Below, piece by piece: positions 4,561-34,754 of a stretch of 64,000 nucleotides of DNA; positions within the stretch are counted from its first letter, which is position 1, and the number at the start of each line of letters is the position of its first letter. The notes below the pieces were generated by a model, which was given only the letters and a program-made list of their open reading frames with translations, was not told where the DNA came from and did no database searches. The stretch comes from Patescibacteria group bacterium (GTDB lineage Bacteria > Patescibacteriota > Patescibacteriia > CAIXNZ01), in contig JAQTMG010000002.1 of assembly GCA_028714455.1 (NCBI GenBank), forward strand, positions 102,047 to 166,046, written 5' to 3'. The position numbers were made by a program, and so were the translations under genes.

Positions 4561-4644
4561 AGGTGATTAGTAGAGTGTGATTAGTGACTAATATCCATTC
4601 ACTCTCCACCAAACCCTCCACGCTCCACACTCAACGCTAAACCA
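4561..4644 (+). repeat. strand-asymmetric intergenic repeat, copy R1
   Basis: A C-free arm (4561-4587) is followed by a G-free run (4588-4621). It is about 80 percent similar to R4. Confidence 0.7.
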
Positions 4645-4660
4645 GCGAAAAAATATATTT

Positions 4661-6862
4661 ATGATTAAAAAAACCTATCATGTCCAGGGCATGGATTGCG
4701 CGGCTTGCGCTGTCCAGATTGAAAAAAAATTAAGTAAAATGCCTGAAATAAAAAAAGTCGTGGTTAATTTGGCCACTGGCATGCTTAATATTGAATCAGA
4801 CAATGAGATTCCTTTTGAAGTTTTGCAAAAAGCTGTCGAGGATATTGGTGCTTATAAATTGCACAAAATGGAACCTGGCGCGGCCGGACACGAACACGGC
4901 GCGATGTTGAAAGAAGCGGAAATTAAGAAATTAAGAAATAAAACGATTTTTGGCGTGATTATTTCTGTCCTGGTGATGATTCTGTCTTATTCTCAATTTA
5001 TTCCAATTCTTAATCAGATTTCAAATAATGTTATAAACCTTTTACTTTTGGTTCTGGCCGCGGCCGTGCAGATCTGGTTGGGTTGGCAGTTTTACAAAAG
5101 CACCTGGGGTAGTTTAAAAAGCTTTAACTCGAACATGGATACCTTGATTGCTCTAGGCACGACAAGCGCTTTTGTTTATTCTTTAGCAGCCGTGATTTAT
5201 TCAATAATTAGTAATCAAAATGTTGGCACCTATTTTGACACGGCTGTTGTAATCTTAACTTTAATTATTTTGGGCAAATATCTGGAAGCCAGGGCCAAGG
5301 GCAAGGCCTCTGATGCTATTAAGAATTTAATTAAACTCCAGGCCAAAATTGCGCACCTCATGGTTAATGGGGTGGAAAAAGAAATTGAGCTTGATCAAGT
5401 TAAAATTGGCGATTTAATCATCGTCAGACCCGGTGAAAAAATTCCGGTTGACGGTGAAATTGTTGAGGGCGAATCCTCGATTGACGAAAGCATGATTACT
5501 GGCGAAAGTTTGCCGGTTGATAAAAAGATTGGCGATAAAGTAATTGGTTCAACAATAAATAAATCCGGCTCTTTTACTTTTAAAGCGGAAAAAGTCGGCG
5601 CTGACACTGTTTTGGCCCAGATCATTAAATTGGTTGGCGAAGCCCAGGGCACAAAAGCGCCCATTCAAAATCTGGCTGATATAATCTCCGGCTACTTTGT
5701 GCCGATCGTTTTGTTAATTGCCCTATTTACCTTTATTATCTGGCTTATTGCTGGCCAGGCCTTTGTTTTTTCTTTGGTCATGGGAATTTCCGTTTTAATT
5801 ATTGCCTGTCCGTGCGCACTTGGGTTAGCCACACCAACCGCGATTATTGTCGGCACTGGCAAGGGCGCGCAAGAGGGGATTTTAATTAAGAATGCCGAAG
5901 GCCTGGAAAAGGCCGAGAAAATCAACGTACTTTGTTTTGATAAAACAGGCACTCTGACCGAGGGCCAGCCAGAGGTTCTAAACTTTTCAGACGAGGATAC
6001 TTTAAAGATCGCTTATTCGCTGGAGTCAAAATCAGAACATCCTTTTGCCGCCGCCATCACTAAAAAAGCGCTGGAATATAAATTTGAGCCGCAAAAAATA
6101 ATTGGGTTTAAAGCAATCACTGGCCGAGGCATTTTGGCCAGCATTGAAAATGAAAAATATTATCTTGGCAATCAGGAATTTTTAGCCGAGCAGGGGATTG
6201 AGTTGCCGGCCGAGACCAAAGCAAAAATTTTGGCAGAAGAAAATTTGGCGCGCAGCGTTTTACTTTTGGCAGATGAAAAAAAATATCTGGGTTATATTTC
6301 ACTGGCTGATCCGATTAAGGAAAATGCCAAGAGTTCGATAGACTTATTAAAATCAATGAACATCAAGCCGGTTCTGATGACAGGCGACAATTCAAAGACG
6401 GCCGAGGTCGTGGCTGGTATTTTAGGCATCAATGAGTGGTATGCCAAGATCCTGCCAGATGAAAAGCAAAAGAAAATCTTGAGTCTGCAGGCTGATGGTA
6501 ATAAAGTTGGCATGGTTGGCGACGGTATAAATGACGCGCCAGCTTTAACCCAGTCGGACCTGGGCATTGCCATGGCCACCGGCACTGACGTGGCTATTGA
6601 ATCAGCGGACTTTGTTATTTTAAAAGGCGATTTGAATAAAGTTATCAAAGCCTTGGTTCTTTCCAAAAAAACCATGTCCACGATCAGGGGTAATTTGTTC
6701 TGGGCCTTTATCTATAATATTATCGGCATTCCCATCGCCGCCGGCATTTTATTTCCGTCAACTCATCTTTTGCTTTCCCCGACCATTTCAGCCGCGGCCA
6801 TGGCTTTTAGCTCTTTGTTCGTGGTTTTAAATTCCTTATTGCTAAAACGCGCCAGGATATAA
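4661..6862 (+). CDS. copA: copper-translocating P-type ATPase
   Basis: N-terminal HMA domain [11 protein letters not shown] motif, DKTGT and GDGINDAP. Confidence 0.95.
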
Positions 6863-6892
6863 AAAAGCCCCGCAGGCACGGGGCTTCATTTT
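6861..6892. terminator. bidirectional terminator between copA and the HD gene
   Basis: AGCCCCG/CGGGGCT stem with an A run before and a T-rich run after. Confidence 0.7.
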
Positions 6893-7483
6893 CTAACAAA
6901 GATCCAATTGGATTGGCAAAAACGCATCAATTATCTTTTTGATTTCGTAATACAGGTATTGGTCAGTTTCCTCGGCAATAGGCAGAATGTAAATTATCGT
7001 CTCCTTTATCTTACGGACCTGCTTCTCTCGGTCGCAAGAGCTTAAAGTCCGCAGATTGTGCAGGCGGTCAACCAGTTTCAGTATCCTGGTTTTATTGTTT
7101 GAGCGGCGGAGCTTTTGGAAATACTTCTGCAACGTTATGCCGTCGCTTAAATCAGTAGCGGATTTTTTAGTCAGAAATTGAACCGCCTTTTTCACCTCCT
7201 TGCCAAAAATGTGCTCAATGTCCCAGAAGTTCAAAATAAAACTGTCTTCGGGTAAATCATGCAGCAGCGCGCTGCAAAGCATTCTGGGGTCGTAGATTTT
7301 CAGCTCGTCAATCAAAATCAGAGCGCAGCTCTTGGGGTGTTCAAAGTACCTTTCGCCGCTTTCACGAGTTTGACCGCGATGGCCGTATTTCGCCAAGACG
7401 TAGGCCAGAATGACCAGATTGAGTTCGCTCGGCAATAACTTATCTTCCAGTTTTTCTATGAATTCTTCTCTGCCAATAGCCAT
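6893..7483 (-). CDS. HD-domain (p)ppGpp-hydrolase-like protein
   Basis: HRGQTRESGERYFEHP...LLHDLPEDS resembles the SpoT/RelA hydrolase HD domain. AAAGGAGG lies upstream. Confidence 0.75.
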   Translation of the reverse strand: MAIGREEFIEKLEDKLLPSELNLVILAYVLAKYGHRGQTRESGERYFEHPKSCALILIDELKIYDPRMLCSALLHDLPEDSFILNFWDIEHIFGKEVKKAVQFLTKKSATDLSDGITLQKYFQKLRRSNNKTRILKLVDRLHNLRTLSSCDREKQVRKIKETIIYILPIAEETDQYLYYEIKKIIDAFLPIQLDLC

Positions 7484-7518
7484 TTTAACCTCCTTTTTAA
7501 AAGAACCGCTGATATTGG

Positions 7519-7579
7519 AGTTTAATACTTGACAAGCTCCTTGTCAACACTTTACATGAAAATTTAAATATTGTATAAT
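7519..7579. promoter_or_regulatory. divergent promoter region with TTGACAAG-CTC-CTTGTCAA palindrome
   Basis: The palindrome at 7529-7547 supplies TTGACA on both strands. The plus strand has TTTACA-17-TATAAT (7551-7579) and the minus strand has TTGACA-17-TAAACT. Confidence 0.5.
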
Positions 7580-7617
7580 AGTGATAATTCGTTTTATTAA
7601 TAATTAATTAAGTTAAT

Positions 7618-8583
7618 ATGAACAAAAAATTTCTAATAGCTTCGCTTCTGGTACTAGTTTTGATATTGTCAGGTTGCGGCATCACAAGTCTGACCCGGGT
7701 TTTGAGCGCTGATGAAGCCAAAGCCAAGGCCGTTGATTTCATCAATAAGAATTTGGTGGCGGCAGGCACCACAGTGACCATAGATAAAGTAACTGAAGAA
7801 AGCGGACTTTACAAGCTGACAGTGACCGTGAACGGCCAGTCAGTCGATTCTTACATGACTAAAGACGGCACTAAATTTTTTACCCAGGCCATTGACATCG
7901 CCCAGGTAGAAAAAGATAACGCGCAAAATAGCGGTCAAGACACCAACACCGCCAAAGAAATACCGAAAAACGATAAGCCAGTCGTTGAACTCTTTGTCAT
8001 GAGCCAGTGTCCCTATGGCACGCAGATTGAAAAAGGCATTATACCGGTCGTTCAAGCCCTTGGTTCAAAAATAGATTTTCAAATAAAATTTGTTGATTAT
8101 GCCATGCATGGAGATGTAGAAATTAAAGAAGAAATGAACCAGGTTTGTATTGAAAAGGATTTCTCCAAAGATTATTTGACCTATCTGCAATGTTTCCTGA
8201 AGGCAGGGGACGGCGCTAGCTGTCTCAAAGAAGCCAAGATTGACACTGCTAAATTAAGTACTTGCGTCAGCGCTTTGGACAAACAATATAGCATCACGGC
8301 TAATGCCGCTGACAAGACAAAGTGGTCCAACGGCACTTATCCTCCCTTTGATGTTAATAAGGCAGATAACGTGAAGTATGGCGTTCAGGGCTCACCCACA
8401 CTGATAATCAACGGTGTTGAATCACAGAGTGCCAGAGATTCAGCCAGTTTATTGAGTGCGATCTGCTCGGGATTTAATACGGCTCCCAGCGGATGCAGCA
8501 CTAAGCTCTCCTCTGACACGCCGGCCGCGGGCTTTGGCACTGGCACTTCTGATACCGCCTCTTCCGCAAGTTGTGGAAATTAA
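7618..8583 (+). CDS. lipoprotein with thioredoxin/DsbA-like domain
   Basis: Signal peptide with an LSGC lipobox, an MSQCPYG redox-like motif and GSPTLIINGV. Confidence 0.65.
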   Translation: MNKKFLIASLLVLVLILSGCGITSLTRVLSADEAKAKAVDFINKNLVAAGTTVTIDKVTEESGLYKLTVTVNGQSVDSYMTKDGTKFFTQAIDIAQVEKDNAQNSGQDTNTAKEIPKNDKPVVELFVMSQCPYGTQIEKGIIPVVQALGSKIDFQIKFVDYAMHGDVEIKEEMNQVCIEKDFSKDYLTYLQCFLKAGDGASCLKEAKIDTAKLSTCVSALDKQYSITANAADKTKWSNGTYPPFDVNKADNVKYGVQGSPTLIINGVESQSARDSASLLSAICSGFNTAPSGCSTKLSSDTPAAGFGTGTSDTASSASCGN

Positions 8584-8662
8584 AAAAAATCAAATAAATA
8601 AAAAGGGCTTAGACGCCCTTTTTATGTTTGACCAAAGTGTTGAAAAAATATAAAATTAATCT

Positions 8663-10195
8663 ATGTTTAAGGAAAATAATTACAAAAAATATCTTTATAT
8701 TCTCTCATTTTTTTGCGGCATGACTATCATGGCCGTGGAAATTTCGGCTTCGCGCCTTTTAGCGCCATATTTTGGCACTTCGACTTTTGTCTGGACCAAC
8801 ATCATCGGCGTGATTATGGTGGCTCTGGCCATTGGCTATTTTGTCGGCGGCAAGTTATCCGACAGGCGTCCAGATTTAAACGTTTTGCTCAAAATAATCC
8901 TGGTTTCCTGTATTTTTTTAATGACCATACCCTTTATTACTAGGCCGTTGGTGGAATTTATAACCGGCAGCATCTCAATCTGGCAATCGGCTACGAGTTT
9001 AATCTTTATCGGTTCTCTTCTGACCGTGGTCATCTTGTTTATTTTTCCGATAATCTTACTTGGTATTGTCAGTCCGTTTATAATCAAGCTGCTTTCTCTG
9101 AAAAATGGCAACGTAGGCAATGACGCTGGACTGGTTTTTTCCATCTCAACCGTTGGCAGTATTGCGGGAACTTTTTTGCCAGTGCTGGTTTTTATTCCCT
9201 ATCTCGGCACCAGGAAAACAATTTTAATTTTTTCCTTGTCTTTGCTGGTAATCGCGATTATTGGTTTGTTTCCCAAAAAAATTTCCTTGATTTTTCTTTT
9301 ACTTTTTATTCCTGTCATTGTTTTAAAAATGCCAGCGATCAAATCCGCCAATGCTGTGGCCGAGGGTGAGTCCGTCTATCAATATTATCAGGTGGCTGAC
9401 CAAAATAATTTTAGATATTTAAAAATCAATGAAGGTATGGGCGTTTTTTCCGTGCTTAACAAAAGTTCAGACAGCGTTTTAACTGATTCTTATTTTGATT
9501 ATTATAATATTTTGCCTTACATTGACGGCCAGAGTAAAAAGCAAGATGTCCTTATTTTGGGTTTAGCCGGCGGCACAGTCAGCACCCAGTTGAATCATTT
9601 TTTTGCCAACGACTTTGATCTGCATATTGACGGCGTGGAAATAGACAAAAAGTTAATTGAAACGGCCAAAAAGTATTTTAATTTGGAGAATCCCTCTCTG
9701 ACCATTTACAATTTAGACGGCCGAAATTTTTTAGATTATTACCAAAATAAATATAACGCAGTGGTGATTGATGTTTATTCCAACCAGCTGTATATTTCTT
9801 TCCACCTGACCACCAAAGAATTTTTTGATTTGGTAAAAAATCATCTGAAGCCTCAAGGTATCGTGGCCATGAATGTCAACGCTACAGGTAAAGATTCGGC
9901 GCTTTTAAAAAACATCACCAATACCATGCTTTTGAGTTTTAAAAATGTTTATACGGTCTGGACCAGTAATTACAGCTGGAACTATTTAGTGATCGCCTCT
10001 GATAGCGATTTAGATTTCAAAGATTTGAAAAATATCAAAGTTGATCCGCAGTTAAGATCAATTATTGATAATACCAGACAAAATGTTGAGAGGGTTGAAT
10101 ACGACAACAAATTTGGTTTCCTGACAGACGATAAAGCGCCAATTGAAAATTTGACTGACTGGATGATAATTGATTATGTATATAAGAATATGTGA
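8663..10195 (+). CDS. fused membrane domain / spermidine synthase-like protein
   Basis: N-terminal multi-TM region plus a C-terminal GLAGGT...DGVEID...VIDVYS aminopropyltransferase-like fold. Confidence 0.8.
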   Translation: MFKENNYKKYLYILSFFCGMTIMAVEISASRLLAPYFGTSTFVWTNIIGVIMVALAIGYFVGGKLSDRRPDLNVLLKIILVSCIFLMTIPFITRPLVEFITGSISIWQSATSLIFIGSLLTVVILFIFPIILLGIVSPFIIKLLSLKNGNVGNDAGLVFSISTVGSIAGTFLPVLVFIPYLGTRKTILIFSLSLLVIAIIGLFPKKISLIFLLLFIPVIVLKMPAIKSANAVAEGESVYQYYQVADQNNFRYLKINEGMGVFSVLNKSSDSVLTDSYFDYYNILPYIDGQSKKQDVLILGLAGGTVSTQLNHFFANDFDLHIDGVEIDKKLIETAKKYFNLENPSLTIYNLDGRNFLDYYQNKYNAVVIDVYSNQLYISFHLTTKEFFDLVKNHLKPQGIVAMNVNATGKDSALLKNITNTMLLSFKNVYTVWTSNYSWNYLVIASDSDLDFKDLKNIKVDPQLRSIIDNTRQNVERVEYDNKFGFLTDDKAPIENLTDWMIIDYVYKNM

Positions 10196-10309
10196 GGAGT
10201 TGAGAGTAAGGAGTGGAGGGCTTAGTGGAGAGTAATTGGATGTTGGTCATTAATTACCCTCAACCAATTACCTAACGCTCAACTCTCCACTCTCCACTAT
10301 TTACCAAAT
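10196..10309 (+). repeat. strand-asymmetric intergenic repeat, copy R2
   Basis: A C-poor arm runs to 10247 and a G-poor arm spans 10248-10309. It contains TTAGTGGAGAGTAATTGG, the reverse complement of an 18-mer in R4. Confidence 0.7.
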
Positions 10310-10365
10310 GGAAGGTTTGCATGGCGGTCTAGTGCGCACGCCTGCCCCGTACCAATATTTATCAA

Positions 10366-10538
10366 GGAAGGATGGCCGAGAGGCTGAAGGCATCCAGCAC
10401 CAACGCGGAGGGATCGCATAGTGGTCTAGTGCGCTTGCTTGGAGAGCAAGTGTGTCGCAAGGCACCGCGAGTTCAAATCTCGCTCCCTCCGCCATGGTGC
10501 TGGATTAATAGCGGGGGATATTAATCTCATTCCTTCCG
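10366..10538 (+). pseudogene. tRNA-Ser-like shell lacking an anticodon loop and a proper T arm
   Basis: The 5' half is GGAAGGA-TG-GCC-GAGAGGCTGAA-GGC-A-TCCAG. The 3' strand TCCTTCC-G pairs with the acceptor. The anticodon stem is extended to a 10-bp helix capped by the inner tRNA. Confidence 0.5.
10407..10494 (+). tRNA. tRNA-Ser(GGA), complete, innermost unit
   Basis: GGAGGGA/TCCCTCC acceptor, loop TTGGAGA, long variable arm, GCGAG-TTCAAAT-CTCGC T arm, G73 and CCA. Confidence 0.85.
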
Positions 10539-10630
10539 CACATTTTTAAAATATTGGTACGGGGCTTGGAAAGCGTGTTGGGCGCAAGCCCTCGTGGGTT
10601 CAAATCCCACACCTTCCGCCATTAATTTAC

Positions 10631-10658
10631 TTGACAAATATTATTTTTGTGCTATAAT
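10631..10658 (+). promoter_or_regulatory. promoter upstream of typA
   Basis: TTGACA, 16 nt, then TGC-TATAAT. Confidence 0.6.
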
Positions 10659-10681
10659 TATTAAAGAATTTATCCTAAATT

Positions 10682-10705
10682 CTGCTGAACGTCAGCGGAT
10701 TTTTT
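10682..10705 (+). terminator. terminator-like hairpin inside the typA leader
   Basis: 7-bp stem CTGCTGA/TCAGCGG followed by ATTTTTT. It lies between the promoter and the ATG at 10760. Confidence 0.45.
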
Positions 10706-10759
10706 ATTTATGTTCCGCTAAGTTCTATATTCTCTATTCTGTATTCTAAATTCTAAGCT

Positions 10760-12562
10760 ATGAGCATAAGAAACGTCGCCATTATCGCACACGTTGACCA
10801 CGGCAAAACCACGCTCGTGGATGCTTTGCTGCGCCAATCAAAAACATATTTAGGCAAGGAAATGAATGAAAAGGATTTGATCATGGACAGCAATGATTTG
10901 GAAAGAGAGCGCGGCATCACCATTTTTTCTAAAAATGCTTCAGTGATCTGGAATGGCATAAAAATAAATATCATTGACACGCCTGGCCACGCCGATTTCG
11001 GCGGGGAAGTGGAGCGCGTTTTAAACATGGCTGACGGCGTGCTGCTTTTGGTTGACGCCAAAGAGGGACCAATGCCGCAGACGCGTTTTGTTTTAAAAAA
11101 AGCTCTAGAAATGGGTCACAGAGTGATTGTAGTTATCAATAAAATTGATAAGCCAGATGCTCGTCCTGATTATGTTCTAGACAAAACCTTTGATTTGTTC
11201 GTGGAACTGGGCGCTGATGATCAGGCTTTAAATTTTCCAGTTATTTATGCCGCGGCCAAACAAGGTAAGGCGGGACTAGAATCAGATTTAAGCAAAATGC
11301 AGGACATCACGCCGATTTTTGACGCCATCATCAATCATATTCCGGCTCCGATTTCTAATACTGAAAAACCGTTACAAATGTTAGTCACGACCGTGACCGC
11401 TGATAATTTCCGCGGCAGAATTGCCATTGGCAGAATTTATAATGGCAAAATTAAAGCCGGACAAGACGTGATGCACATAAATCGTGAAGGCCAAATGACA
11501 AAATTTCGTTTGGTTTCCTTGATGACTTTTGTGGGCTTGGGCCGTATTGATATTCAGGAAGCAGTAGCCGGCGATATCGTGGCTATTTCTGGCATACCCG
11601 AAGTAAATATCGGCGAAACAATTGCTGACGCTGAAAATCCCAACGCCTTGCCGCTTTTAAATATAGAAGAGCCGACAGTGAAAATGACTTTTATGATTAA
11701 TGATTCTCCTTTTGCCGGCAAAGAGGGCGAGTTTTCAACTTCACGCCAAATTCAGGAGCGCTTGCATAGAGAATTGGAAACTGACATGGCTTTGCGCGTG
11801 GAAAATAACGCCGCTGGCACCTGGACCGTTTCAGGACGCGGTGAATTGCACCTGGCGATTTTAATTGAAAGAATGAGACGTGAAGGTTATGAATTTCAAG
11901 TTTCCAGACCGCAAGTTATTAATAAAGAAAAAGATGGAAAAACCTTAACTCCATTTGAAAGAGTCTTTATTGAAGTGCCTGAACAATATTATGGTTCATG
12001 CATTCAAAAACTTGGCAGTAGAAAAGGTGAGTTAAAAGAAATGAGAACGCTTGATGGCATTACTTATTTAGAATTTGTAATCCCTACTCGTGGTCTTTTT
12101 GGCTATCGCAGTGAATTTTTAACAGACAGCCGCGGTCTTGGTATAATTAATACATCTTTTTATCAATACGATCTTGACCCCAATAACTGGGGTGAAAAAG
12201 AACAGGGCTCGTTAGTTGCTCATGAAACAGGCACCTCGCATTTGTATGGTTTGGTTAATGTGCAGGGCAGGGGAGTTTTATTCATTGGACCAGGCGTTTC
12301 TGTTTATGAAGGCCAAGTTGTCGGTCTAAATTCTCGACCAGGCGATATTCGTGTTAATGTCTGTAAGGAAAAACAACTCTCAAATATGCGCTCCAAGGGT
12401 GACGGCGGCGCTGAACACTTTAATAAACCAAAGGAAATGGATCTGGAAGATGCTTTGGAATTCATCGGCGACGATGAACTTGTTGAAGTTACGCCAAAAA
12501 ATGTCAGAATCAGAAAGGTTTATCTTGATGAAGTGTCTGCCAAGAGAATGGCCAGAAAATAA
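10760..12562 (+). CDS. typA: translational GTPase TypA/BipA
   Basis: [18 protein letters not shown] and the full-length BipA architecture. Confidence 0.95.
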
Positions 12563-12891: not shown

Positions 12892-12980
12892 TTAATATCA
12901 CCTCCTTTATTTTTTTAAACCTTAGCATATAATAATTCACAAATCAAATCATCCAATTCCTAATTACTAATCACCGGCCT

Positions 12981-15835: not shown

Positions 15836-16208
15836 ATGGATAGGGGGACATGGCTAACCCAAGCCAGGAGGTGCTCTCATGAAAAAGTTTGTCGGAACCA
15901 TGTCTCGGTTGTCGGGTCTGTAACATGCGGAAGGCAAAGTAACAGGCCTGCGATCAAGGGCGTGTCCGCTAAACCAAGGCGAAAGAGGAGCCTGTTTTTC
16001 TTTCGCCACGCGGACACGCCCACGACAATAATCCCCGTCGGAAAGGGGATAAAAGGATATTAAAAAATCAAAGGAGGAGCTTGCATGGAAAAACTTTTTT
16101 CCAGGCTCGTGGTCGATCTGTAGACTCCTGATACGGAGGAAGCAGATCATCTTAATATTCACGGTCCAAAAAGGACCCCAAACCCCCGAACATAGGTTCG
16201 GGGTTTTT
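15836..16208 (+). ncRNA. promoter-to-terminator unit with structured RNA and two SD-led micro-ORFs
   Basis: A 64-nt nested hairpin at 15958-16021 has 12-bp and 8-bp stems. Micro-ORFs lie at 15879-15923 (14 aa) and 16085-16123 (12 aa). The terminator is at 16183-16208. Confidence 0.4.
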
Positions 16209-16270
16209 ATTTGTATATTTTTTAAAAGTCGAAGTATCGTGGTATAATACTTGTAAATAACCGCTTAACT

Positions 16271-17017
16271 ATGATTAACAAAATTATAAAATTTACTTTT
16301 TTAGGCCTGCTAATAGTGGGTGTTTTTTCACTAATCGCCTGGGTAATCTTTGAGTTCACCCTTGATGATCCAAAGGGTGAGGAAAATGCGGTTAAAAAGA
16401 TTTTTTACCAAGCCGCGAGTATCTTGCCTGTCTACCCGGCGGTTGATTTGACCGTGCCTTACCACCATCAACAGCACGCTCTCTCCTGTGAAGTTGCTTC
16501 CTTAACTATGGCCCTAAATTACAAAGGCGTAAAAGTAACTGAAAACGAGTTAATCGCCCAGCTGCCTTTTTCTTTTACCGGACCTCGCCAGACCGGCAAT
16601 ATCTGGGGCGATCCTAATTTAGGTTTTGTCGGCAACATTGATGGCACCATGCCCAATACTGGCTATGGCGTTTATGAGCAGCCGATTTATGATTTAGCTT
16701 CTAAATATCGCTCGGCTAAAATTATTACCAATGGCACTGTCGCTGATTTAATTACGGAATTAGTAAATGGCAATCCTATCGTTGTCTGGGGAGTGGTCGG
16801 TAGCGGCAAAGATATTTCCTGGAAGACACCTAACGGAAAAGTTATCAGCGCCAAGCTGGATGAGCACGCCAGGACTTTAATCGGCTTTACCGGTACGTCA
16901 GATAATCCCAAATTACTTATTTTGGACGACCCGATTTACGGCAAGATAAGAATGTCAGTCAGCAGCTTTCAAAAAAATTGGGGCATGCTGGATAATAGGG
17001 CAGTGGTAATTTATTAA
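16271..17017 (+). CDS. peptidase C39-like (YvpB/BtrH-like) domain protein
   Basis: N-terminal TM segment and HALSCEVASLTMALNYKG, a catalytic Cys region typical of C39-like proteins. Confidence 0.65.
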   Translation: MINKIIKFTFLGLLIVGVFSLIAWVIFEFTLDDPKGEENAVKKIFYQAASILPVYPAVDLTVPYHHQQHALSCEVASLTMALNYKGVKVTENELIAQLPFSFTGPRQTGNIWGDPNLGFVGNIDGTMPNTGYGVYEQPIYDLASKYRSAKIITNGTVADLITELVNGNPIVVWGVVGSGKDISWKTPNGKVISAKLDEHARTLIGFTGTSDNPKLLILDDPIYGKIRMSVSSFQKNWGMLDNRAVVIY

Positions 17018-17029
17018 AATCAAATTTAA

Positions 17030-17057
17030 CAAAAAAAAAGAGGGCCCTAGAACAGAG
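17030..17057. terminator. bidirectional terminator
   Basis: GAGGGC/GCCCTC stem flanked by an A run and a T-rich run. Confidence 0.65.
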
Positions 17058-17078
17058 CCCTCTTTGGGTTTCAGATGA

Positions 17079-17453
17079 TTACGCAGTGATGATTGATGGT
17101 TCTCCCATCAAGGCCTCACGAGAAAACTGCTTTTTCTCGGCGGAGACCTGCTCCACTTCCCTGACGAATTCGGGGAACTCGGCGAAAACGACAGCCGCCA
17201 CTTCAGGGATCTTATCATAGAAGTAGTTTCTTGCGATGCCGCGCAGAGAACATCTCCTGATACTTTTTTCGTGGTCGGCGATGCATTCCTCTGCCAGGTC
17301 GTAGAATTCTTCGGTGGTGATAGTCTGCCGGGTCAGTCTGCCCGCGATCAGTTTGCACCAACCATAGGCGTCCGGCAGCATGAACGCAATTTTCTGCTTA
17401 TTCATTCTCAACAGCCGTTCCTTTGCCTCTGCCACAAAAGCAACCTTTGCCAT
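17079..17453 (-). CDS. hypothetical protein (SD-bearing orphan)
   Basis: 124-aa ORF with AAAGGAGGGG upstream. Confidence 0.55.
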   Translation of the reverse strand: MAKVAFVAEAKERLLRMNKQKIAFMLPDAYGWCKLIAGRLTRQTITTEEFYDLAEECIADHEKSIRRCSLRGIARNYFYDKIPEVAAVVFAEFPEFVREVEQVSAEKKQFSREALMGEPSIITA

Positions 17454-17615
17454 ATTACCCCTCCTTTGGGTTTGGGTTGGAATATTGTATGCGTTAATGT
17501 ACGTTTTTAATCATTAATAATACCACAAAAAAATAGTCTTGTCAAGAGCTAGGCTGATTGACTCGTTATTTTTTGGCTAAAATAAAAGAAAAACCCCGTC
17601 AATTGACGAGGTTTT

Positions 17616-18104
17616 TTAATGAAGCACTCTTGCTTTATGATCTTGCTTTTTGGAGTTGTGTTTCTCTGCCTTGTCGATTTCTCCGGCTATTTTACTAAGC
17701 AAAGATTCCACGCAGTCCTTGGCCTTAGAAAGAGCGATTTCGTCCATTTTACTCGAATGCGATTCCAGATAAGCATGGAAGGCGCTCAAAATTAGCGAGG
17801 CGGTCAGCCACTGTTCACGAGTGAGAACAATGAGCTGCGGCTGATCATAGTCAAGTTTTTGATCACTGATGGCTGCTTCCAGCTTCTGGAGATAATCTTC
17901 AGGAGTAAGACAGCCCGTTAAAAGAACAAACTGATTAAAAGATTTCTCTTTAAGCTTAATCAGATCAGCTAGATATGAACTCTTGATCTGGGAAAGAAGC
18001 ATATCAATTTCAAAGATGTTCAGATTAATCTTTATGGTCAGGTCTTGCAAAAATGGATTGGCCGTATCGGATTGATCCGTATTCCGCCTACTTTGCTCCG
18101 GCAT
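17616..18104 (-). CDS. hypothetical protein (SD-bearing orphan)
   Basis: 162-aa ORF with GGGAGG upstream. The terminator AAAACCCCGTCAATTGACGAGGTTTT lies downstream. Confidence 0.55.
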   Translation of the reverse strand: MPEQSRRNTDQSDTANPFLQDLTIKINLNIFEIDMLLSQIKSSYLADLIKLKEKSFNQFVLLTGCLTPEDYLQKLEAAISDQKLDYDQPQLIVLTREQWLTASLILSAFHAYLESHSSKMDEIALSKAKDCVESLLSKIAGEIDKAEKHNSKKQDHKARVLH

Positions 18105-18258: not shown

Positions 18259-19977
18259 ATGAAAAAATATCTATCAATTTTCGTGATTCTAGGCGGCCTG
18301 CTTCTGGCCTGGCCGGTCTTGGCCCAGGAACAAATTGATAATTATGACGTGACGATTCAAATGAATAAAGACGCGACCATCAATGTTTCAGAAAGGATAC
18401 AATATGATTTCGGCGCAGAGCAAAAGCACGGCATTTTCAGATACATACCGATCAAATATAAGGCGCGCGGCGGTAACTTTAACCTAAGAATTTCCGACAT
18501 AAGCGTAATTGATGGTAACGGCTTTTTTTACAACACCGAAATTACTTACCCGGGCAACGATGTAAGTATCAAAATCGGCGAGGCTGATGTTTTGGTTAGT
18601 GGCAAAAAAACTTACATTATTGACTATACTATCAGGCGAGCCATTAACTACTTCGAAGACCATGACGAATTGTATTGGAACGTGACTGGCAATGAATGGC
18701 CGGTGCCGATTGTCAAATCTAGTGCCGCGGTTATTTTGCCTGTTAGTTTTGACGCTTCTCAAATCATGAAGTCATGCTTTAGCGGACCATTTGGCAGCAC
18801 TGCTTCTTGCGCCAAAACCGATTTGATTAAAAATAATGAAAACGGTTTGGTCAAGTTCATACTCTTTAGCCAAAATGAATTGAAAGCGGGCGAGGGCTTA
18901 ACAATTGTGGCGGGCTTGCCAGTTGGCAGCATCGCCAAACCCACTTGGCAGCAAAACATTACTGATTTTTTAAGTGATAATAAGGCCTTATTTTTGCCGC
19001 TTCTGGTTTTACTGGCCTGTTTTATTTATTGGTATTGGAAGGGCCGAGATCCCAAGGGCAGAGTCACGATAATTGCCGAGTACGAAGCGCCCGATGATTT
19101 AACGCCATCTGAAGTAGGCACGATTATCGATGAAATGGTTAATAAAAAAGATGTTTCCGCGGAAATAATTAATCTGGCCGTGCTGGGCTATTTGAAAATT
19201 AAAAGGGAAATCAGCGGCACTATAATCAAAAAACCTGTTTACACTTTGCTAAAATTAAAGTCCTCTGACGGGCTTTTGCCGCACCAAAAGAAACTGATGG
19301 ACGCGCTCTTTTCAAGCGACAAGCAAGAAGTCGCTCTTTCTAATTTATCGGAAAACTTTTATAAAAAGTACGAAGAGCTGGTTAAAGATATTTACGCTCT
19401 AACCGTTAGCAAAGGTTATTTCCCCGCAAGTCCACAAAAAGTCAGACAAAGGGCCGCCATGGTCTTGGCTCTTATTTTGGGCGCTGTTTATTTATTCACG
19501 GGCTTATTTTCTGATACCCTGGGTTTTGTTGGTTTTATCATCTCCATTATAATTGTGGAAATTTTCGCTTTTAGAATGCCCAGAAAAACCCTCAAGGGCG
19601 TTTTGACCAAAGAAAAAATATTGGGGCTTAAAGAATTTTTAATGGTCACTGAAAAAGATAGGATAAAATTTCACAACGCGCCAGAAAAAAGTCCTGAACT
19701 TTTTGAAAAGTTTTTACCTTATGCCATGGTTTTGGGCGTGGAAACGCAGTGGGCCAAGCAGTTTGAATCAATTTATAAAACTCCACCGTCTTGGTATCAG
19801 GGCACGGAAGGCGCCAATTTTAATAGCATTTTATTTGTCTCTAGTCTGCATAACTTTCAAGCGCAAACAAATTCTGCTTTATTTACCGCGCCCTCAAGCG
19901 CTGCCGGCGGCGCTAGCGGTTTTTCCGGCGGTGGCTCTGGCGGGGGATTTGGCGGCGGTGGAGGAGGGTCTTGGTAA
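18259..19977 (+). CDS. DUF2207-family membrane protein
   Basis: Signal peptide, internal TM segments and a C-terminal GGGSGGGFGGGGGGSW tail typical of DUF2207. Confidence 0.7.
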   Translation: MKKYLSIFVILGGLLLAWPVLAQEQIDNYDVTIQMNKDATINVSERIQYDFGAEQKHGIFRYIPIKYKARGGNFNLRISDISVIDGNGFFYNTEITYPGNDVSIKIGEADVLVSGKKTYIIDYTIRRAINYFEDHDELYWNVTGNEWPVPIVKSSAAVILPVSFDASQIMKSCFSGPFGSTASCAKTDLIKNNENGLVKFILFSQNELKAGEGLTIVAGLPVGSIAKPTWQQNITDFLSDNKALFLPLLVLLACFIYWYWKGRDPKGRVTIIAEYEAPDDLTPSEVGTIIDEMVNKKDVSAEIINLAVLGYLKIKREISGTIIKKPVYTLLKLKSSDGLLPHQKKLMDALFSSDKQEVALSNLSENFYKKYEELVKDIYALTVSKGYFPASPQKVRQRAAMVLALILGAVYLFTGLFSDTLGFVGFIISIIIVEIFAFRMPRKTLKGVLTKEKILGLKEFLMVTEKDRIKFHNAPEKSPELFEKFLPYAMVLGVETQWAKQFESIYKTPPSWYQGTEGANFNSILFVSSLHNFQAQTNSALFTAPSSAAGGASGFSGGGSGGGFGGGGGGSW

Positions 19978-20024
19978 TTTCTAAATCCTAAATTCTAAAT
20001 CCTAGAAAATAGGAATATATTTTC

Positions 20025-21026
20025 ATGAACAAATTCTATACTCAATTTAATGACATTTTAAAAGATCAGCCTGCTTACAGAGTTAAGCAAATTAAGCAGG
20101 CTATTTTTGTTGAGCTAATTGATAATTGGGACAAGGCCATGACTTTGCCCAAGAAACTTAGAGCTGAACTGGCAAAAAAAGTTCCATTGGAAGTTAAAGC
20201 GCAAATTTTTGAATCAAAAGATGAGGACGCGATCAAAGCTTTGATTACTTTAGGTGATGGTTTAAAAATTGAAACTGTTTTAATGAAACACAATCGTAGA
20301 AATACTGTTTGCGTTTCCTCTCAAGTCGGCTGCCCTTTGGGCTGTAAATTTTGTGCCACAGGCGCCATGGGATTTAAAAGAAATCTGGAAACCTGGGAAA
20401 TTGTCAGTCAGGTTTTATTCTTTGCCAGAAAATTAAAAATCACCGGCGAAAGAATTGATAACGTGGTTTTCATGGGCATGGGCGAGCCATTTTTAAATTA
20501 CAATAACGTTATGGAGGCCATTAGAATTTTAAATGACGCGCATGGCCTGGCTATTGGTATTCGCCATTTTTCAATTTCAACCATTGGCATAATCGAGGGC
20601 ATTGAAAAATTTGCTGATGAAAAAATGCAAGTCAACCTGGCCATCTCCTTGCACGCGCCAGATGATAAGACCAGAATCAGCATCATTCCTTGCGGCAAAA
20701 AATATACAATTCACAAAATTCTTGAGGCGGTTGACGATTATATTGCCAAAACCAATCGCAAAGTTATGTTTGAATATCTTTTAATAAAAGGGGTTAATGA
20801 TTCTGATGATTTTGCTTTAAAATTAGCGAAATTGATGAAAAAGCCGCTTTATTTTGTCAACCTAATCACGTATAATAAGACTGGAGCCTATCAACCGCCT
20901 TCCACAGATAAAATTAAACATTTCAAAGATATTTTGGAAAAGAACAGAGTTTTTACCACACTGCGCTACAGATTTGGCGCTGATATTGAAGCGGCGTGCG
21001 GACAGCTTGCAGCTGGCAATAAGTAG
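20025..21026 (+). CDS. rlmN: 23S rRNA/tRNA adenine-C2 methyltransferase RlmN (radical SAM)
   Basis: CPLGCKFCATG radical SAM cluster and an RlmN-like length and C-terminal Cys. Confidence 0.9.
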   Translation: MNKFYTQFNDILKDQPAYRVKQIKQAIFVELIDNWDKAMTLPKKLRAELAKKVPLEVKAQIFESKDEDAIKALITLGDGLKIETVLMKHNRRNTVCVSSQVGCPLGCKFCATGAMGFKRNLETWEIVSQVLFFARKLKITGERIDNVVFMGMGEPFLNYNNVMEAIRILNDAHGLAIGIRHFSISTIGIIEGIEKFADEKMQVNLAISLHAPDDKTRISIIPCGKKYTIHKILEAVDDYIAKTNRKVMFEYLLIKGVNDSDDFALKLAKLMKKPLYFVNLITYNKTGAYQPPSTDKIKHFKDILEKNRVFTTLRYRFGADIEAACGQLAAGNK

Positions 21027-21130
21027 AGAGTTGAGCGTGGAGAGTTTGGATATTAGGAATTGGTAAATAGTGTATTAATTTCCCTCCACCAATTACTTAT
21101 CACTCCACTCTTTACCCTTTACCCCAAACC
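21021..21130 (+). repeat. strand-asymmetric intergenic repeat, copy R3
   Basis: A C-poor arm (21021-21081, one C) is followed by a 49-nt G-free run (21082-21130) containing CCAATTAC. Confidence 0.7.
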
Positions 21131-21138
21131 GTTCAATT

Positions 21139-21606
21139 ATGAAACCAAATTACATCATCATTCCACTCATTACTCTTGCCATTGCTCTTACTGGCAGTTT
21201 ATTGACCAGCGCTGGCATGGATTGGTATAACACGCTGACTCTGCCAGCTTCGGCTCCTGCGGGAATAGTAATCGGTACTGTCTGGACAATAATTTTCATA
21301 CTTTCAACGATTTCAGCGCTGATTATTTGGAATAACTTCAAGGAGGATAAATTATTTCGGTGGATAATCGGCATCTTTATAGCCAACGCGATTTTAAACG
21401 TGCTCTGGAGTTATGTCTTCTTCTATTCTCATCAAATCGGTGCTTCCATAGTTGAAATGATTATTTTAGAACTCTCGGTTCTCTCACTCTGCGTTCTTAT
21501 TTGGCCAAAATCAAAATGGGCTTCGATTTTACTCTGGCCATACGTCGCTTGGGTGATTTTTGCCACGTATTTGACTGTTAACATCTGGCAATTAAATTTA
21601 ATATAG
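21139..21606 (+). CDS. tspO: TspO/MBR family tryptophan-rich sensory protein
   Basis: 155 aa, five TM segments and Trp-rich TspO-like motifs. Confidence 0.75.
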   Translation: MKPNYIIIPLITLAIALTGSLLTSAGMDWYNTLTLPASAPAGIVIGTVWTIIFILSTISALIIWNNFKEDKLFRWIIGIFIANAILNVLWSYVFFYSHQIGASIVEMIILELSVLSLCVLIWPKSKWASILLWPYVAWVIFATYLTVNIWQLNLI

Positions 21607-30221: not shown

Positions 30222-30248
30222 GCATATATTATAGTATGATACCTAAGT

Positions 30249-30276: not shown

Positions 30277-30310
30277 ATCCACAACTAGCCTTGACAACAA
30301 TGTTATATTA

Positions 30311-30333
30311 TTCTAACATTAAGATAGTTAGAA
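30311..30333. promoter_or_regulatory. inverted repeat TTCTAAC-9 nt-GTTAGAA, candidate operator
   Basis: It lies just downstream of TTGACA (30291-30296) and upstream of the DUF2178/HTH pair. Confidence 0.4.
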
Positions 30334-30359
30334 ATAATTAACATAATTAAACAAAACGT

Positions 30360-30746: not shown

Positions 30747-30933
30747 AGTAAGGGTAAAAGAATTTCGGCTTAAAAAAGGCCTGACCCAAGAAGAATTAGC
30801 CAGACGAGTTGGTGTGCGTAGAGAAACTATTGTTTTTCTTGAACAAGGGAAATATAATCCGTCTCTAAAACTGGCACTTAACATAGCCAAAGAATTAAAA
30901 ATACCAGTTGATGAATTATTTTCTTTAGCATAA
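30733..30933 (+). CDS. XRE-family HTH regulator (YozG-like)
   Basis: [34 protein letters not shown]. Confidence 0.85.
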
Positions 30934-30982
30934 ATAACGTAATTCAAAAAAGACCCAAGGAGGGCCTTTTTTGAGTATTTGA

Positions 30983-31597: not shown

Positions 31598-31699
31598 ATG
31601 CTTTTCATTATATTATTTTGAGCGCGTTTGGACAAGGCGGCGCTCTTTTATTTTTCTTCAAAAAGAGCTAAGATTGAATTAAGAAATTAACAAAAAATC

Positions 31700-32290
31700 A
31701 TGAAAAAAATCATTATCGGTTTTGTCAGCGCGTTGGTCATTATTGGTCTTGGTACCATTATTTATTATTTTGTGATGCCGCGCGAGCTTGGCTCGCTGCA
31801 GAATATTGATTTAAAATCGTCTGGTCCCACTGCTTCAAATCAGCCAATCAATAAAACCCAAGAATCAAACGACTATAAAATTTTAAAAACGACTGACTTT
31901 GAAGTCAAATATCCCAATTGGCAAAACATTGACGTTTCAACCATCCCTGACGCGAAATATGTGAAAGTGGCCGTCTCTAACCAAAGATGTGTTTTAATAA
32001 TCAAAGGTACTCCTTTACCCGCCAACACTAGCTACAAAGATTATATCGAGGGGATTATTAAGCAATCGGGCGCAGCTTTAAAAATAAATTCGCAACAAAT
32101 AAATAGCGCTTCGGCTTATCTGGATGGAGATGTCACTTCTGGACAAACCATTTTAAGAAACATTTCTTATAGCTATTTAGCCAAGAGCAACGTTGTCTAT
32201 GGCCTGGCCTTTGTTTCGGAAAAAAGCGTGTTTGAAAATTATTGCCGTGAGACGATTGAGAACGTAATTAATAGCGTGATTGTAAAATAA
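31700..32290 (+). CDS. hypothetical membrane-anchored protein
   Basis: N-terminal TM segment and 196 aa. Its stop abuts the PP2C gene. Confidence 0.55.
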   Translation: MKKIIIGFVSALVIIGLGTIIYYFVMPRELGSLQNIDLKSSGPTASNQPINKTQESNDYKILKTTDFEVKYPNWQNIDVSTIPDAKYVKVAVSNQRCVLIIKGTPLPANTSYKDYIEGIIKQSGAALKINSQQINSASAYLDGDVTSGQTILRNISYSYLAKSNVVYGLAFVSEKSVFENYCRETIENVINSVIVK

Positions 32291-32291
32291 T

Positions 32292-33062
32292 ATGAAAGAA
32301 TCCATTCTAAATATAACCAAACCAAAAGAGTCAATTCCATCTTTTGAAAAATTTTCCGGCCTCTGGGAAAAAGGTTTTGAGGACATTAAAATATTTAACG
32401 GCAAAAGCGGCCGGATTGTCATGGGCACTGACAAGGGGTTGCGTGAACAGAATGAAGATATTATTGCCGTTGATTTTGGAAACGACGCCTTTGCCGTGAT
32501 TGATGGCATGGGCGGCTATGCGCATGGCCAAGAGGCGGCCCAAATAGTTGGCCTGCAATTTTTAAAAGCAGTCAAAGAAAAATTGAGCCCGCGCGAGATG
32601 CATAAAAATGCCCACATCGTGATGCAATGTACCGGTTTCAAAGAAAGCGGCGCCGTTTATCTGGCTGGCCAAATTGAAAAGAAAAAATTAAAAATCTGGT
32701 CTGCCGGCGATGCGCATTTAGTTGTTGTGGACAGTAAGGGTGAGATTAAATTCTCATCGAAATATACAACCTTGCAAGACGCGCCAAGCGGTCATGGACT
32801 TGGTGAAGCCAAAACCGATTTTACTTTACTAGAAAATTATGACAGAATTTTTGTTGGAAGTGATGGCTTGTTTAATAATATTAAAGATGAAGAGCTTAAA
32901 AATCTGAAAGGCGTGCCAATAGAAAAAGCCATGCAAGAATTGGTTAAATCCGCTAAAAATGCCATGAAAAACGGTCTTGATGAAAATACCGGCGGCAGTC
33001 CTGACAATCTTACGATTTTAATTTATGAAATTTTGCCCACGCCGTTACGTGGAAAAAATTAA
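32292..33062 (+). CDS. PP2C-family Ser/Thr phosphatase
   Basis: DGMGG and GSDGL metal-binding motifs. Confidence 0.75.
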   Translation: MKESILNITKPKESIPSFEKFSGLWEKGFEDIKIFNGKSGRIVMGTDKGLREQNEDIIAVDFGNDAFAVIDGMGGYAHGQEAAQIVGLQFLKAVKEKLSPREMHKNAHIVMQCTGFKESGAVYLAGQIEKKKLKIWSAGDAHLVVVDSKGEIKFSSKYTTLQDAPSGHGLGEAKTDFTLLENYDRIFVGSDGLFNNIKDEELKNLKGVPIEKAMQELVKSAKNAMKNGLDENTGGSPDNLTILIYEILPTPLRGKN

Positions 33063-33126
33063 TATATTATTTTTCATTAAAATCAAGCAAATTCTAATCA
33101 AATGAAAAAAGCCGCCTGATTCTCAA

Positions 33127-33159
33127 AAGACCCCGAGATAGCATTAAGGGGTCTTTTTT
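33127..33159 (+). terminator. hairpin, left copy of the pair flanking thrC
   Basis: AAGACCCC/GGGGTCTT stem plus a T run. The stems are identical to those at 34612-34646. Confidence 0.7.
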
Positions 33160-33242
33160 ATTATATATGACTTGATTTTTTTATTTTTATCTGTTAAGGT
33201 TATCCATCGGAACATTGAAAAAATAAAATTAAGGAGGAAAAA

Positions 33243-34604
33243 ATGGAAAAAGCGTTTACGATGGATCAAACGTGGCTACAATGCATGAATTGCGGACACA
33301 GAGCCGACTTGCTGGAGGAAAGAAAATTCAGGTGCCCAGAGTGCGGAGGACTCTATGATATTGAGCACAATTTTAAAAGATTGCCCGTTGATCTTGGGGA
33401 TGATTCGTCGGGAAGAAAATGGAGTTTTAAATCGTTGTCGTCCCGTTATTTTCGCGAGCTTTTTCAGGCCAGAGCTGGGGGCGCTTTCAATTCTTTTAAG
33501 CCGGAATGTGTTTCAGGCATCTGGCGCTACAAGGAATGGATTATGCCGTACTTGCCCGAAGGTCAGATTGTCACTTTGCACGAAGGCAACGTGCCAATCG
33601 TGCCAGCCGGTAAAAATCTTCAGGCCTGGGTCGGCGATGTTGAGCTTTATATCATAATGGAAGGCATGACTCCGACCGGTTCATTCAAGGATTTCGGCGG
33701 CACGGTCATGATGTCCATTGCCAAAGCCGCTGGCATCAAAGCCGTTTGTTGCGCCTCAACCGGCGACACTTCGGCCATGGCCGCGGCTTATGCGGCGGCG
33801 GCCGGCCTTGCCTGTGTGGTCATTTTGCCCCGCGGCAAAGTCACGCCAGTTCAATTGGCTCAACCGCTTGTTCACGGCGCCAGAGTCATCACTTTGCCCG
33901 GCAGCTTTGACGATTGCATGCGCGTCATGCAGGAACTCGTTAGAGAATACGGCATCTACCCGGCCAACAGTCTTAATCCTTCGAGGATCGAGGGCCATCA
34001 GGCCACGGTTTTTCAAATCGCCCAGCGCTTTAACTGGAATTTACCCGATTGGATTTCGGTGCCAGTGGGCAACGGCAGTAATTGTTCATCGGTTGGCAAA
34101 GCTCTGCGTCTTATGAAAAAATTCGGCTTTCAAGCGCCGACCAAAATTTTGGGCTGCCAATCAACGGCCGCCGATCCGCTTTCTTTTCCCTGGTTCGGCG
34201 GAATCACCCTGGAAAAGTGGAAAGCAGATTACTCGCCGATTAAAGTAGGCGAAACTTCTGCCACGGCCGCCAGAATCGGCGACCCTGTCTCTCGCGACAA
34301 AGTCATGAGAGAAATTCTGGCCTCGCATGGCGCCATGCAAACCGCGGCTGAAAGAGAATTGAACGAAGCCGTGGCCATTTGTGGTAAAGACGGCCATAAT
34401 GTCTGCCCGCAAACTGGCATGGCTCTGGCTGGCGTAAGAAATGCCTTGAAGTGCGGCCAAATTAAGGCGGGGGAGCGAGTTATTGTCGTTTCCACCGCAA
34501 CCGGCCTGAAGTTTGGCGAATCTGCCGCCGCCAACCTCAAATCAAACATTATTAATGCCACCGATTGTAAAATAAGCACGGTGGCCAAAATTATGGAACT
34601 GTAA
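33243..34604 (+). CDS. thrC: threonine synthase with N-terminal zinc ribbon
   Basis: PLP lysine motif GSFKD and CMNCG...CPECG. AAGGAGG lies upstream. Confidence 0.85.
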   Translation: MEKAFTMDQTWLQCMNCGHRADLLEERKFRCPECGGLYDIEHNFKRLPVDLGDDSSGRKWSFKSLSSRYFRELFQARAGGAFNSFKPECVSGIWRYKEWIMPYLPEGQIVTLHEGNVPIVPAGKNLQAWVGDVELYIIMEGMTPTGSFKDFGGTVMMSIAKAAGIKAVCCASTGDTSAMAAAYAAAAGLACVVILPRGKVTPVQLAQPLVHGARVITLPGSFDDCMRVMQELVREYGIYPANSLNPSRIEGHQATVFQIAQRFNWNLPDWISVPVGNGSNCSSVGKALRLMKKFGFQAPTKILGCQSTAADPLSFPWFGGITLEKWKADYSPIKVGETSATAARIGDPVSRDKVMREILASHGAMQTAAERELNEAVAICGKDGHNVCPQTGMALAGVRNALKCGQIKAGERVIVVSTATGLKFGESAAANLKSNIINATDCKISTVAKIMEL

Positions 34605-34611
34605 ATAACCC

Positions 34612-34646
34612 AAGACCCCGAGATTACATCAAGGGGTCTTTTTTTA
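34612..34646 (+). terminator. hairpin, right copy of the pair flanking thrC
   Basis: AAGACCCC/GGGGTCTT stem plus a T7 run. Confidence 0.75.
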
Positions 34647-34754
34647 TTGGTTTTTGATGGAGAGTGGGTTAAGTAATCAGTTAAACGTGATTAGTGACCA
34701 ATATCCAATTACTCTCCACTAAATCCTCCACTCTCTACTCTCAACTCTAAACAA
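34639..34754 (+). repeat. strand-asymmetric intergenic repeat, copy R4
   Basis: A C-poor arm runs to 34697, followed by a 57-nt G-free run (34698-34754) containing CCAATTACTCTCCACTAA. Confidence 0.7.

Follow-up and report, generated by a model that had tools for sequence, protein, structure and literature searches.

Heptamer-built intergenic repeats with inverted arms in a 64-kb stretch of a Patescibacteria genome

Four intergenic sites in a 64,000-nt stretch of a Patescibacteria genome (assembly GCA_028714455.1, contig JAQTMG010000002.1, positions 102,047 to 166,046; hereafter the window) carry sequences with a left arm almost free of C and a right arm almost free of G. Do these four elements, R1 to R4, belong together, and what kind of sequence would leave such a pattern between genes? 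They form a real family of intergenic, non-coding repeats, and the reading that we favor, with moderate confidence, is that of a lineage-specific DNA repeat that was recently dispersed, is tolerated in one polarity and has at most incidental effects on expression. The host genome is of the Parcubacteria type with a GC content of 40%, and the sequence of it covered here consists of the 64-kb window plus 2.3 kb from Logan contigs. The elements lie where an earlier inspection of the letters (the sequence-only reading) had placed them, as follows:

4559-4645, plus strand: R1, a copy of a core unit of about 87 nt, matching R4 at E=3e-18 and the family profile at E=3e-25 (as a training sequence of that profile)
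10192-10309, minus strand: R2, the fullest inverted pair, with a self-complement match at E=3.6e-6
21022-21138, strand unassigned: R3, a divergent inverted pair, matching the profile on the minus strand (E=1e-5) and the plus strand (E=9e-3), and R2 at E=1e-6
34652-34755, plus strand: R4, a core-unit copy at 34669-34755 with a decayed C-free left arm from about 34652-34658

Base composition alone singles out these sites. Scanning the 64 kb for a C-3G score of at least 13 in 40-nt windows returned exactly R1-R4. Of the 42 intergenic regions that are 60 nt or longer, R1-R4 alone reached the threshold, with scores of 16-18 against 11 for the runner-up and a mean of 0.32 (maximum 3) for shuffled intergenic regions. 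The left halves contain 1-5 C and the right halves 0-2 G. The long G-free runs reported by the sequence-only reading exist, at measured lengths of 35, 30+32, 58 and 58 nt for R1 to R4 in place of its hand counts of 34, 29+32, 49 and 57 nt, and all of the words that it listed are present within the elements.

The copies are also significantly similar to each other, with E-values from 1e-6 to 8e-21 by blastn against the window. R1 and R4 share the 80% identity that had been estimated for them, across 87 nt (E=3e-18) and not the shorter span of 65 nt first proposed. The minus strand of R2 matches R4 at 82% across 93 nt (E=8e-21), with 10197-10276 being the reverse complement of 34668-34747 at 84% across 80 nt, and matches R1 at E=9e-13, while R3 matches R2 at E=1e-6. 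The 18-mer CCAATTACTCTCCACTAA at 34705 recurs as its exact reverse complement at 10222, as had been noticed. A profile built from the three best copies also picks up R3 by each of its arms and R2 by its second arm, and finds nothing else in the window beyond R1-R4. Logan assemblies from other runs contain R3 and R4 at 100% identity. A pattern that is C-free and then G-free reads alike on either strand, so that orientation cannot be told from composition; R2 matches R1 and R4 in reverse complement, and the copies therefore do not share the single orientation that had been assigned to them.

The arms consist of degenerate tandem heptamers, with the consensus CTCNACT in the C-rich arm and the complement, AGTNGAG, in the G-rich arm. 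Pooled over the arms, identity at a lag of 7 nt is 0.525, compared with 0.32 +/- 0.027 in shuffled sequence (maximum 0.42 in 1000 shuffles), and at a lag of 14 nt it is 0.50. Tandem Repeats Finder (TRF) reports period-7 arrays in R1-R4 with the units CTCCACG, CTCCACT, CTTTACC and CTCAACT, and other units (CCAATTA, CTAAAYC) are mixed into the arms. For example, R1 has a short C-free left part (4559-4587) followed by a G-poor heptamer arm (4587-4644) that ends in ACTCTCC ACCAAAC CCTCCAC GCTCCAC ACTCAAC GCTAAAC. The arms are AT-rich, about 45-60 nt long and complementary at only about 71% in a shifted register; their G runs are mostly GG (GGAGAG), with isolated GGG in R2 and R4 only. The inverted pair is complete in R2 and R3, and R1 and R4 have a decayed or truncated left arm. 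In R2, the core unit occupies the minus strand at 10192-10276 and a second G-free heptamer arm the plus strand at 10247-10309. Profile alignment reveals a non-periodic center, GTGATTAGTGACCAATATCCAATTAC, common to R1, R4 and the minus strand of R2, which points to descent from one unit and not to convergent slippage. In a strict scan for complementary arm pairs, R2, R3 and R4 register as running from a G-rich to a C-rich arm (R1 has a left arm below the length that the scan detects), which makes three such pairs in the window and none of the opposite polarity; in unrelated IMG/VR loci, two of which probably duplicate one contig, the ratio is 15:2. A first polarity scan without a complementarity requirement gave noise (369 versus 359).

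In comparison with relatives the elements look recently gained. R3 occupies the entire spacer between rlmN and tspO, with its C-free arm beginning in the rlmN stop codon TAG (21024-21026) and its 58-nt G-free arm stopping 8 nt short of the tspO ATG at 21139. Relative L332 (RlmN 90% identical in amino acids, rlmN DNA 82%) keeps the rlmN-tspO order with 1 nt from stop to ATG, and its homology to the window ends at 21004 and restarts at 21138, leaving out the approximately 111 nt of R3. The element is likewise missing from L333/L334 (83%) and L304/L305 (57%). None of 80 Patescibacteria loci from an RlmN metagenome scan, at up to 63% identity, carries the family, and only L304/L305 among them keep the gene order. 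In L010 (BipA 95%) a gene takes the place of R2, and at the R4 site L335 (ABC ATPase 90%) has no element and a different upstream context; these two are the nearest relatives available for those sites, and their gene content there differs too. The copies are 80-84% identical to each other versus 70-85% for the orthologous coding DNA of relatives, so dispersal was probably recent. On these alignments R3 looks recently gained in the rlmN-tspO spacer rather than conserved, which would mean that the small genomes of Patescibacteria still gain non-coding DNA even inside tight operons (111 nt between rlmN and tspO).

The sequence family itself appears undescribed. An exact-pattern scan with ACTCTCCACYAANYCCTCCAC across 185,579 species genomes gave only four matches, all in unrelated taxa, and the two inspected (L002 and L003) look like chance. 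A profile search of about 0.9 Mb of other Patescibacteria loci returned no copies, BLAST of phage and plasmid sequences gave no match, and no account of dispersed intergenic repeats in Patescibacteria was found, a full-text search yielding no literature that links this group with the terms MITE (miniature inverted-repeat transposable element) or REP (repetitive extragenic palindrome). The C-3G / G-3C window scan extended to relatives was swamped on its G-rich side by purine-rich coding DNA.

The kind of element, on the other hand, is not new, although the sequence-only reading had recognized no described class in it. Intergenic heptameric repeats are known from Xanthomonas (GGGAATC) and from Nostoc/Anabaena (GGGGAYT), and Xanthomonas genomes each hold 70-75 convergent inverted array pairs in which the C-rich complement comes after a G-rich array (Rehm et al. 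2015, PMC4692102). There, G-rich units lie on the coding strand 0-50 bp past stop codons or overlap them, and in the 0-50 bp upstream of open reading frames (ORFs) they occupy the non-coding strand, making the mRNA strand C-rich; the arrays vary in length and sequence among close relatives and show no link to mobile elements (PMC4692102). R1-R4 are alike in having tandem 7-nt intergenic units in convergent inverted pairs, and R2 and R3 share both the architecture and the placement rule. They differ in that their units are degenerate and not near-perfect copies of one unit, in that they are almost without G-tracts of three or more and hence without G-quadruplex potential, and in their host, a 40% GC Patescibacteria genome. 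Three copies are moreover 80-84% identical over their full 87-93 nt, including the non-periodic center, which points to dispersal of whole units. In the nearest relatives here, more distant ones than those compared for the Xanthomonas repeats, the sites carry no element. A little-studied class of heptamer arrays and convergent inverted pairs is thereby extended to a new phylum, and the placement rule common with Xanthomonas hints either at a general constraint on which sequences can stand beside stop and start codons or at some general function. The finding adds modestly to a kind of element that is known but poorly understood, and is not a new mechanism.

Two further groups of heptamer repeats bear comparison. 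TAACTGA direct repeats lie upstream of starts in Beggiatoaceae, Cyanobacteria and Bacteroidetes (MacGregor 2015, PMC4679880); they end a few nt before starts without a Shine-Dalgarno (SD) sequence, are strain-specific with differences in 7-nt steps, and number 169 direct sets versus 1 indirect set (PMC4679880). The arrays described here are similarly short, tandem and G-poor on the mRNA strand, but have other units (CTCNACT, CTTTACC and similar), and R1-R4 are inverted pairs, with a protein start codon ahead of R1 and R3 only. A second group, the short tandemly repeated repetitive sequences (STRR) of cyanobacteria, consists of tandemly amplified heptanucleotides dispersed in intergenic DNA, with no known function. 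To our knowledge STRR have not been described as obligatory inverted pairs, and their units differ from those of R1-R4. Three tandem heptanucleotides of this group are on record in Calothrix PCC 7601 (as cited in PMC4692102).

The relation of the elements to transcription signals differs from copy to copy. Extended -10-like boxes accompany two of them:

4535-4543, plus strand: TGCTAAAAT box, 117 nt upstream of the copA ATG
34789-34797, plus strand: TGCTAAAAT box, 9 nt upstream of the ABC-transporter ATG and downstream of R4

The first box was correctly located by the sequence-only reading, which had put R1 in a putative 5′ untranslated region. R1 does sit between this box and the copA ATG at 4661, with its arm ending 16 nt from the ATG, and it lies downstream of a terminator. 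Since promoter-like boxes in the window are usually 6-22 nt upstream of a start codon, R1 looks like an insertion between promoter and gene. The position is not a consistent one, however. R4 lies above its box and directly after a terminator (34612-34644), ending 52 nt upstream of the start codon with the box in between; if that box is a promoter, R4 is probably outside the leader of the ABC-transporter gene. R2 runs over the TGA stop codon (10193-10195) of a gene resembling spermine synthase and stops 1-2 nt short of 10311, where the 5′ half of a split tRNA-Ser(GGA) begins, and R3 fills an intra-operon spacer. R2 and R3 thus overlap the upstream stop and end 1-8 nt before the next gene, a rule that applies only in part to R1 and R4, both of which follow a terminator instead.

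In the reading that we favor, the arms would have arisen by slippage-type expansion in 7-nt steps, as the literature proposes for heptamer repeats. Recent copying would then have carried whole units, in either orientation, into new intergenic sites through a DNA-level process; candidate routes are ectopic recombination among arrays and a trans-acting transposase. Copies would persist only with the G-rich arm by the upstream stop and the G-free arm by the downstream start. A G-free stretch cannot hold ATG, GTG, TTG or a GGAGG-type SD sequence, and so leaves the initiation of the next gene undisturbed. Any effects on expression would be incidental, namely the addition of a leader without SD sequence or start codons and, in R2 and R3, of a moderately stable stem at an operon junction.

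Several observations weigh against this account. The alignment of R1, R4 and the minus strand of R2 has no 7-nt indels, so slippage is not currently active there. No target-site duplication is visible at R3 when compared with the empty site of L332 (flanks 82% identical), the elements lack clean terminal inverted repeats, and no transposase or RAYT (REP-associated tyrosine transposase) gene was found in the 64-kb window. The alternative of loss in the relatives, which are distant at the genus level, would be excluded by parsimony alone. Copy number and orientation statistics cover the window and the 2.3 kb of Logan sequence. Lastly, the consistent polarity and the exact stop-to-gene span of R2 and R3 could equally reflect a selected function.

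The alternative that survives best, although we consider it unlikely, is such a function at the RNA level: hairpins at operon junctions that would protect 3′ ends in the manner of REP elements and/or couple translation, with a ribosome ending at the stop codon melting the base of the stem and freeing the G-free arm and the SD-less start region. Indeed, R2 and R3 begin in the stop codons of genes without their own terminator, copA and tspO both lack an SD sequence, the polarity is non-random, and in R3 a stem of about 21023-21030 with about 21115-21122 would leave 16 nt unpaired before the tspO ATG. Folding, however, does not bear out the long hairpin that had been proposed for every element. 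Z-scores on the plus and minus strands are -2.7/-4.2 for R2, a clear hairpin potential, and -2.4/-2.7 for R3, which is moderate, but R1 (-1.6/-1.5) and R4 (-1.8/-0.3) fold no better than shuffles. Neither a consensus structure nor covariation is evident, RNAalifold on the four aligned copies giving 11 pairs at -7.8 kcal/mol with an unfavorable covariation term (+0.88), and none of the elements has an Rfam match, even with the cutoff at E<=5; R1-R4 are not a conserved structured RNA. Context also argues against a shared device, as R4 stands after a canonical terminator and before the promoter-like box of the next gene, and R2 precedes a tRNA instead of an ORF. The tspO gene of L332, 1 nt past rlmN without the element, shows that no device is needed there.

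Other RNA-level and coding candidates were tried and rejected. R1-R4 are not intrinsic terminators, as no terminator-like site is predicted inside them and no T-run follows their right arms, and no convincing -10 box was found inside the loops. SD/anti-SD mimicry (GGAGG versus CCTCC) was given up because the copies do not conserve it, and the small ORFs of R2 and R4 for the same reason.

Heptamer arrays of simpler structure also occur elsewhere in the window:

10718-10756, plus strand: GTTCTAT ATTCTCT ATTCTGT ATTCTAA ATTCTAA, ending 3 nt before the bipA ATG
12926-12975, plus strand: G-free 50-nt tract (CCAATTC CTAATTA CTAATCA) directly upstream of tRNA-Ser(CGA)
19975-20004, plus strand: G-free CTAAATY array, beginning at the stop of a DUF2207 gene and lying 20 nt upstream of the rlmN ATG
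46143-46174, plus strand: C-free TTAGAGA array, beginning at the stop (46144-46146) of a LOG-family gene
52226-52280, plus strand: G-free 55-nt leader (CTAATTA, CCAATTA, CTAATAA), ending 3 nt before the rpsM ATG

The rpsM leader contains the family word CCAATTAC and matches a section of the R3 left arm in reverse complement (E=1.5e-4). At SD-less starts, the gap from array to ATG is 8 nt in R3, 16 nt in R1 and 3 nt for bipA and rpsM. The five ATTCTNN units of the bipA leader are missing from L010 (BipA 95% identity), L011 has instead a different G-free heptamer array of 70 nt after a TTGACA/TACAAT promoter-like site, and L009 carries 4.5 AACTTTA units downstream of bipA. Simple heptamer arrays come and go within the clade, bordering genes; low-score TRF period counts in the relatives show no clear excess of period 7.

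These arrays suggest a second functional hypothesis, which we hold to be improbable. G-free arrays could serve as multimeric leader sites for a single-strand-binding protein, for instance a cold-shock protein or ribosomal protein S1, with approximately one protein per 7 nt, binding of which would drive or regulate SD-independent initiation, the complementary upstream arm acting as a masking anti-site. Such a role would fit the G-free or G-poor arrays 3-20 nt before the bipA, rpsM, rlmN, tspO and copA starts, which are without SD sequence, and the position of the L011 array between promoter-like site and bipA ATG, where it is probably transcribed as a leader. It would also parallel the proposal made for the Beggiatoaceae TAACTGA repeats, which cites CspB binding to heptamer repeats (PMC4679880). 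Yet the unit varies by site (CTCNACT, ATTCTNN, CTAAATY, CTAATTA), an argument against a single specific binder; the same genes in close relatives lack the arrays, and R4 and R2 do not adjoin a protein start codon. A coupling or stabilizing hairpin or a protein-binding leader array is conceivable but lacks conservation.

Similarly doubtful is a MITE- or REP/RAYT-type element linked to a transposase. Like MITEs and REP/BIME/REPIN sequences, R1-R4 are small, non-coding and partly palindromic, occur in several copies and in both orientations, and vary in presence among relatives; three or more copies of 87-93 nt, 78-84% identical, occupy unrelated loci, and the R3 site is empty in a relative. As noted above, no target-site duplication is visible at R3 and clean terminal inverted repeats are lacking, and the 64 kb contain no transposase, IS200/IS605 TnpA or RAYT gene. 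The arms, at around 50 nt, are long, AT-rich and heptamer-periodic, while REPs are short, at 20-40 nt, GC-rich and very high in copy number, and the heptamer repeats of Xanthomonas are likewise without mobile-element association (PMC4692102). We reject REP/REPIN-RAYT identity in particular, given the AT-rich arms of ~45-60 nt and the lack of a RAYT or Y1 transposase gene in the window.

A broader proposal, to which we give little credence, is that inverted pairs of G-rich and C-rich tandem arrays may be a general, convergent RNA-level signal at bacterial and phage gene junctions. The G-rich arm would close the upstream message and the G-free arm would form a leader without start codons or SD sequence, with the stem coupling or insulating translation and possibly hiding a C-rich Rho-loading tract. 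Such pairs occur in Patescibacteria, in Xanthomonas and in several IMG/VR contigs. The IMG/VR contigs were exposed by looser 15-base patterns, each with at least 120 matches; single matches are probably mostly chance, and the patterns are too loose for census use.

Several contigs of 58-66% GC in IMG/VR carry many inverted tandem-array pairs, nearly always G-rich and then C-rich (L074 at 2732-2873, 5374-5587, 7112-7197 and 8155-8277; L225 at 2240-5686; L115 at 5422-6584; L050 at 8967-9511). The arrays are mostly heptamers, with one of period 8, and several stop a few nt before an ATG. The ORF context of viral arrays is unreliable at high GC, where G-free arrays sit in spurious open frames. Some of the contigs have words in common with the window (GGAGAGT/ACTCTCC, GAGTTGAG/CTCAAC, CTCNACT / AGTNGAG), partly by construction, as the loci were selected by CTCNACN; this selection biases the shared words, not pairing or polarity.

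The weakest alternative, a chance or compositional artefact of skewed, low-complexity, AT-rich intergenic DNA, is refuted for practical purposes: although the arms are of low complexity and other AT-rich stretches also have G-free runs of 40-55 nt, only these four regions pass the C-rich/G-poor threshold, the shuffle test falls far below them, the E-values of 1e-18 to 1e-21 take in the non-periodic center as well, the 18-mer recurs exactly in reverse-complement form, and independent assemblies hold identical sequence.

Some observations concern the surroundings of the elements. Boxes of the form TGNTAWAAT stand 6-22 nt before many genes, which have no SD sequence (e.g. 34789, 39740 and 47352, and further sites at 55939, 42356 and 16240), and this short spacing suggests leaderless or very short-leader mRNAs; operon-internal genes carry strong AAGGAGG sites. 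The T-run hairpin at 34612-34644 next to R4 is 91% identical to one at 33127-33159 (AAGACCCCGAGAT..AAGGGGTCTTTTTT), the two terminator-like sequences being 1.5 kb apart and flanking a gene for a pyridoxal phosphate (PLP) enzyme, and a second similar pair occurs at 36613-36650 and 37735-37772 (82%). The tRNA-Ser(GGA) beside R2 is split within 10311-10621, with its 5′ half at 10311-10344 and its 3′ half at about 10566-10621, and is intact in the relatives L010 and L009. The interruption of approximately 220 nt falls at the anticodon loop, is flanked by the inverted repeat CCCCGTACC / GGTACGGGG, and holds a second complete tRNA-Ser(GGA) at 10407-10494 together with a tRNA-like 5′ fragment at about 10366-10400.

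The bipA region also has features of its own. A consensus promoter-like site, TTGACA-16-TGCTATAAT, lies within 10631-10705 (L010 2470-2550), and a short T-run hairpin at 10681-10699 between this site and the start is kept in the 95% relative and may for this reason be a leader attenuator. L011 (GCA_936409115.1) has two bipA/typA genes, at 10001-11806 and 15887-17689, which are 4 kb apart and separated by AbiEii, LexA-like and DNA methylase genes. Elsewhere in the window, C-free arrays of period 8 occur at 60864-60934 and 62724-62778 (4.5 units of TTGGTTTA, and ATTGGTTT), near the 3′ ends of a glycosyltransferase ORF and a Wzy_C ORF. Finally, a 33-nt sequence, ATRGATTCCACGCTRCGCTCTGAATGAC, is present at 2412-2444 and 60072-60104 with 88% identity, its first copy about 44 nt past the gatC stop (2368) and its second overlapping the stop of a small GIY-YIG gene (59737-60075).

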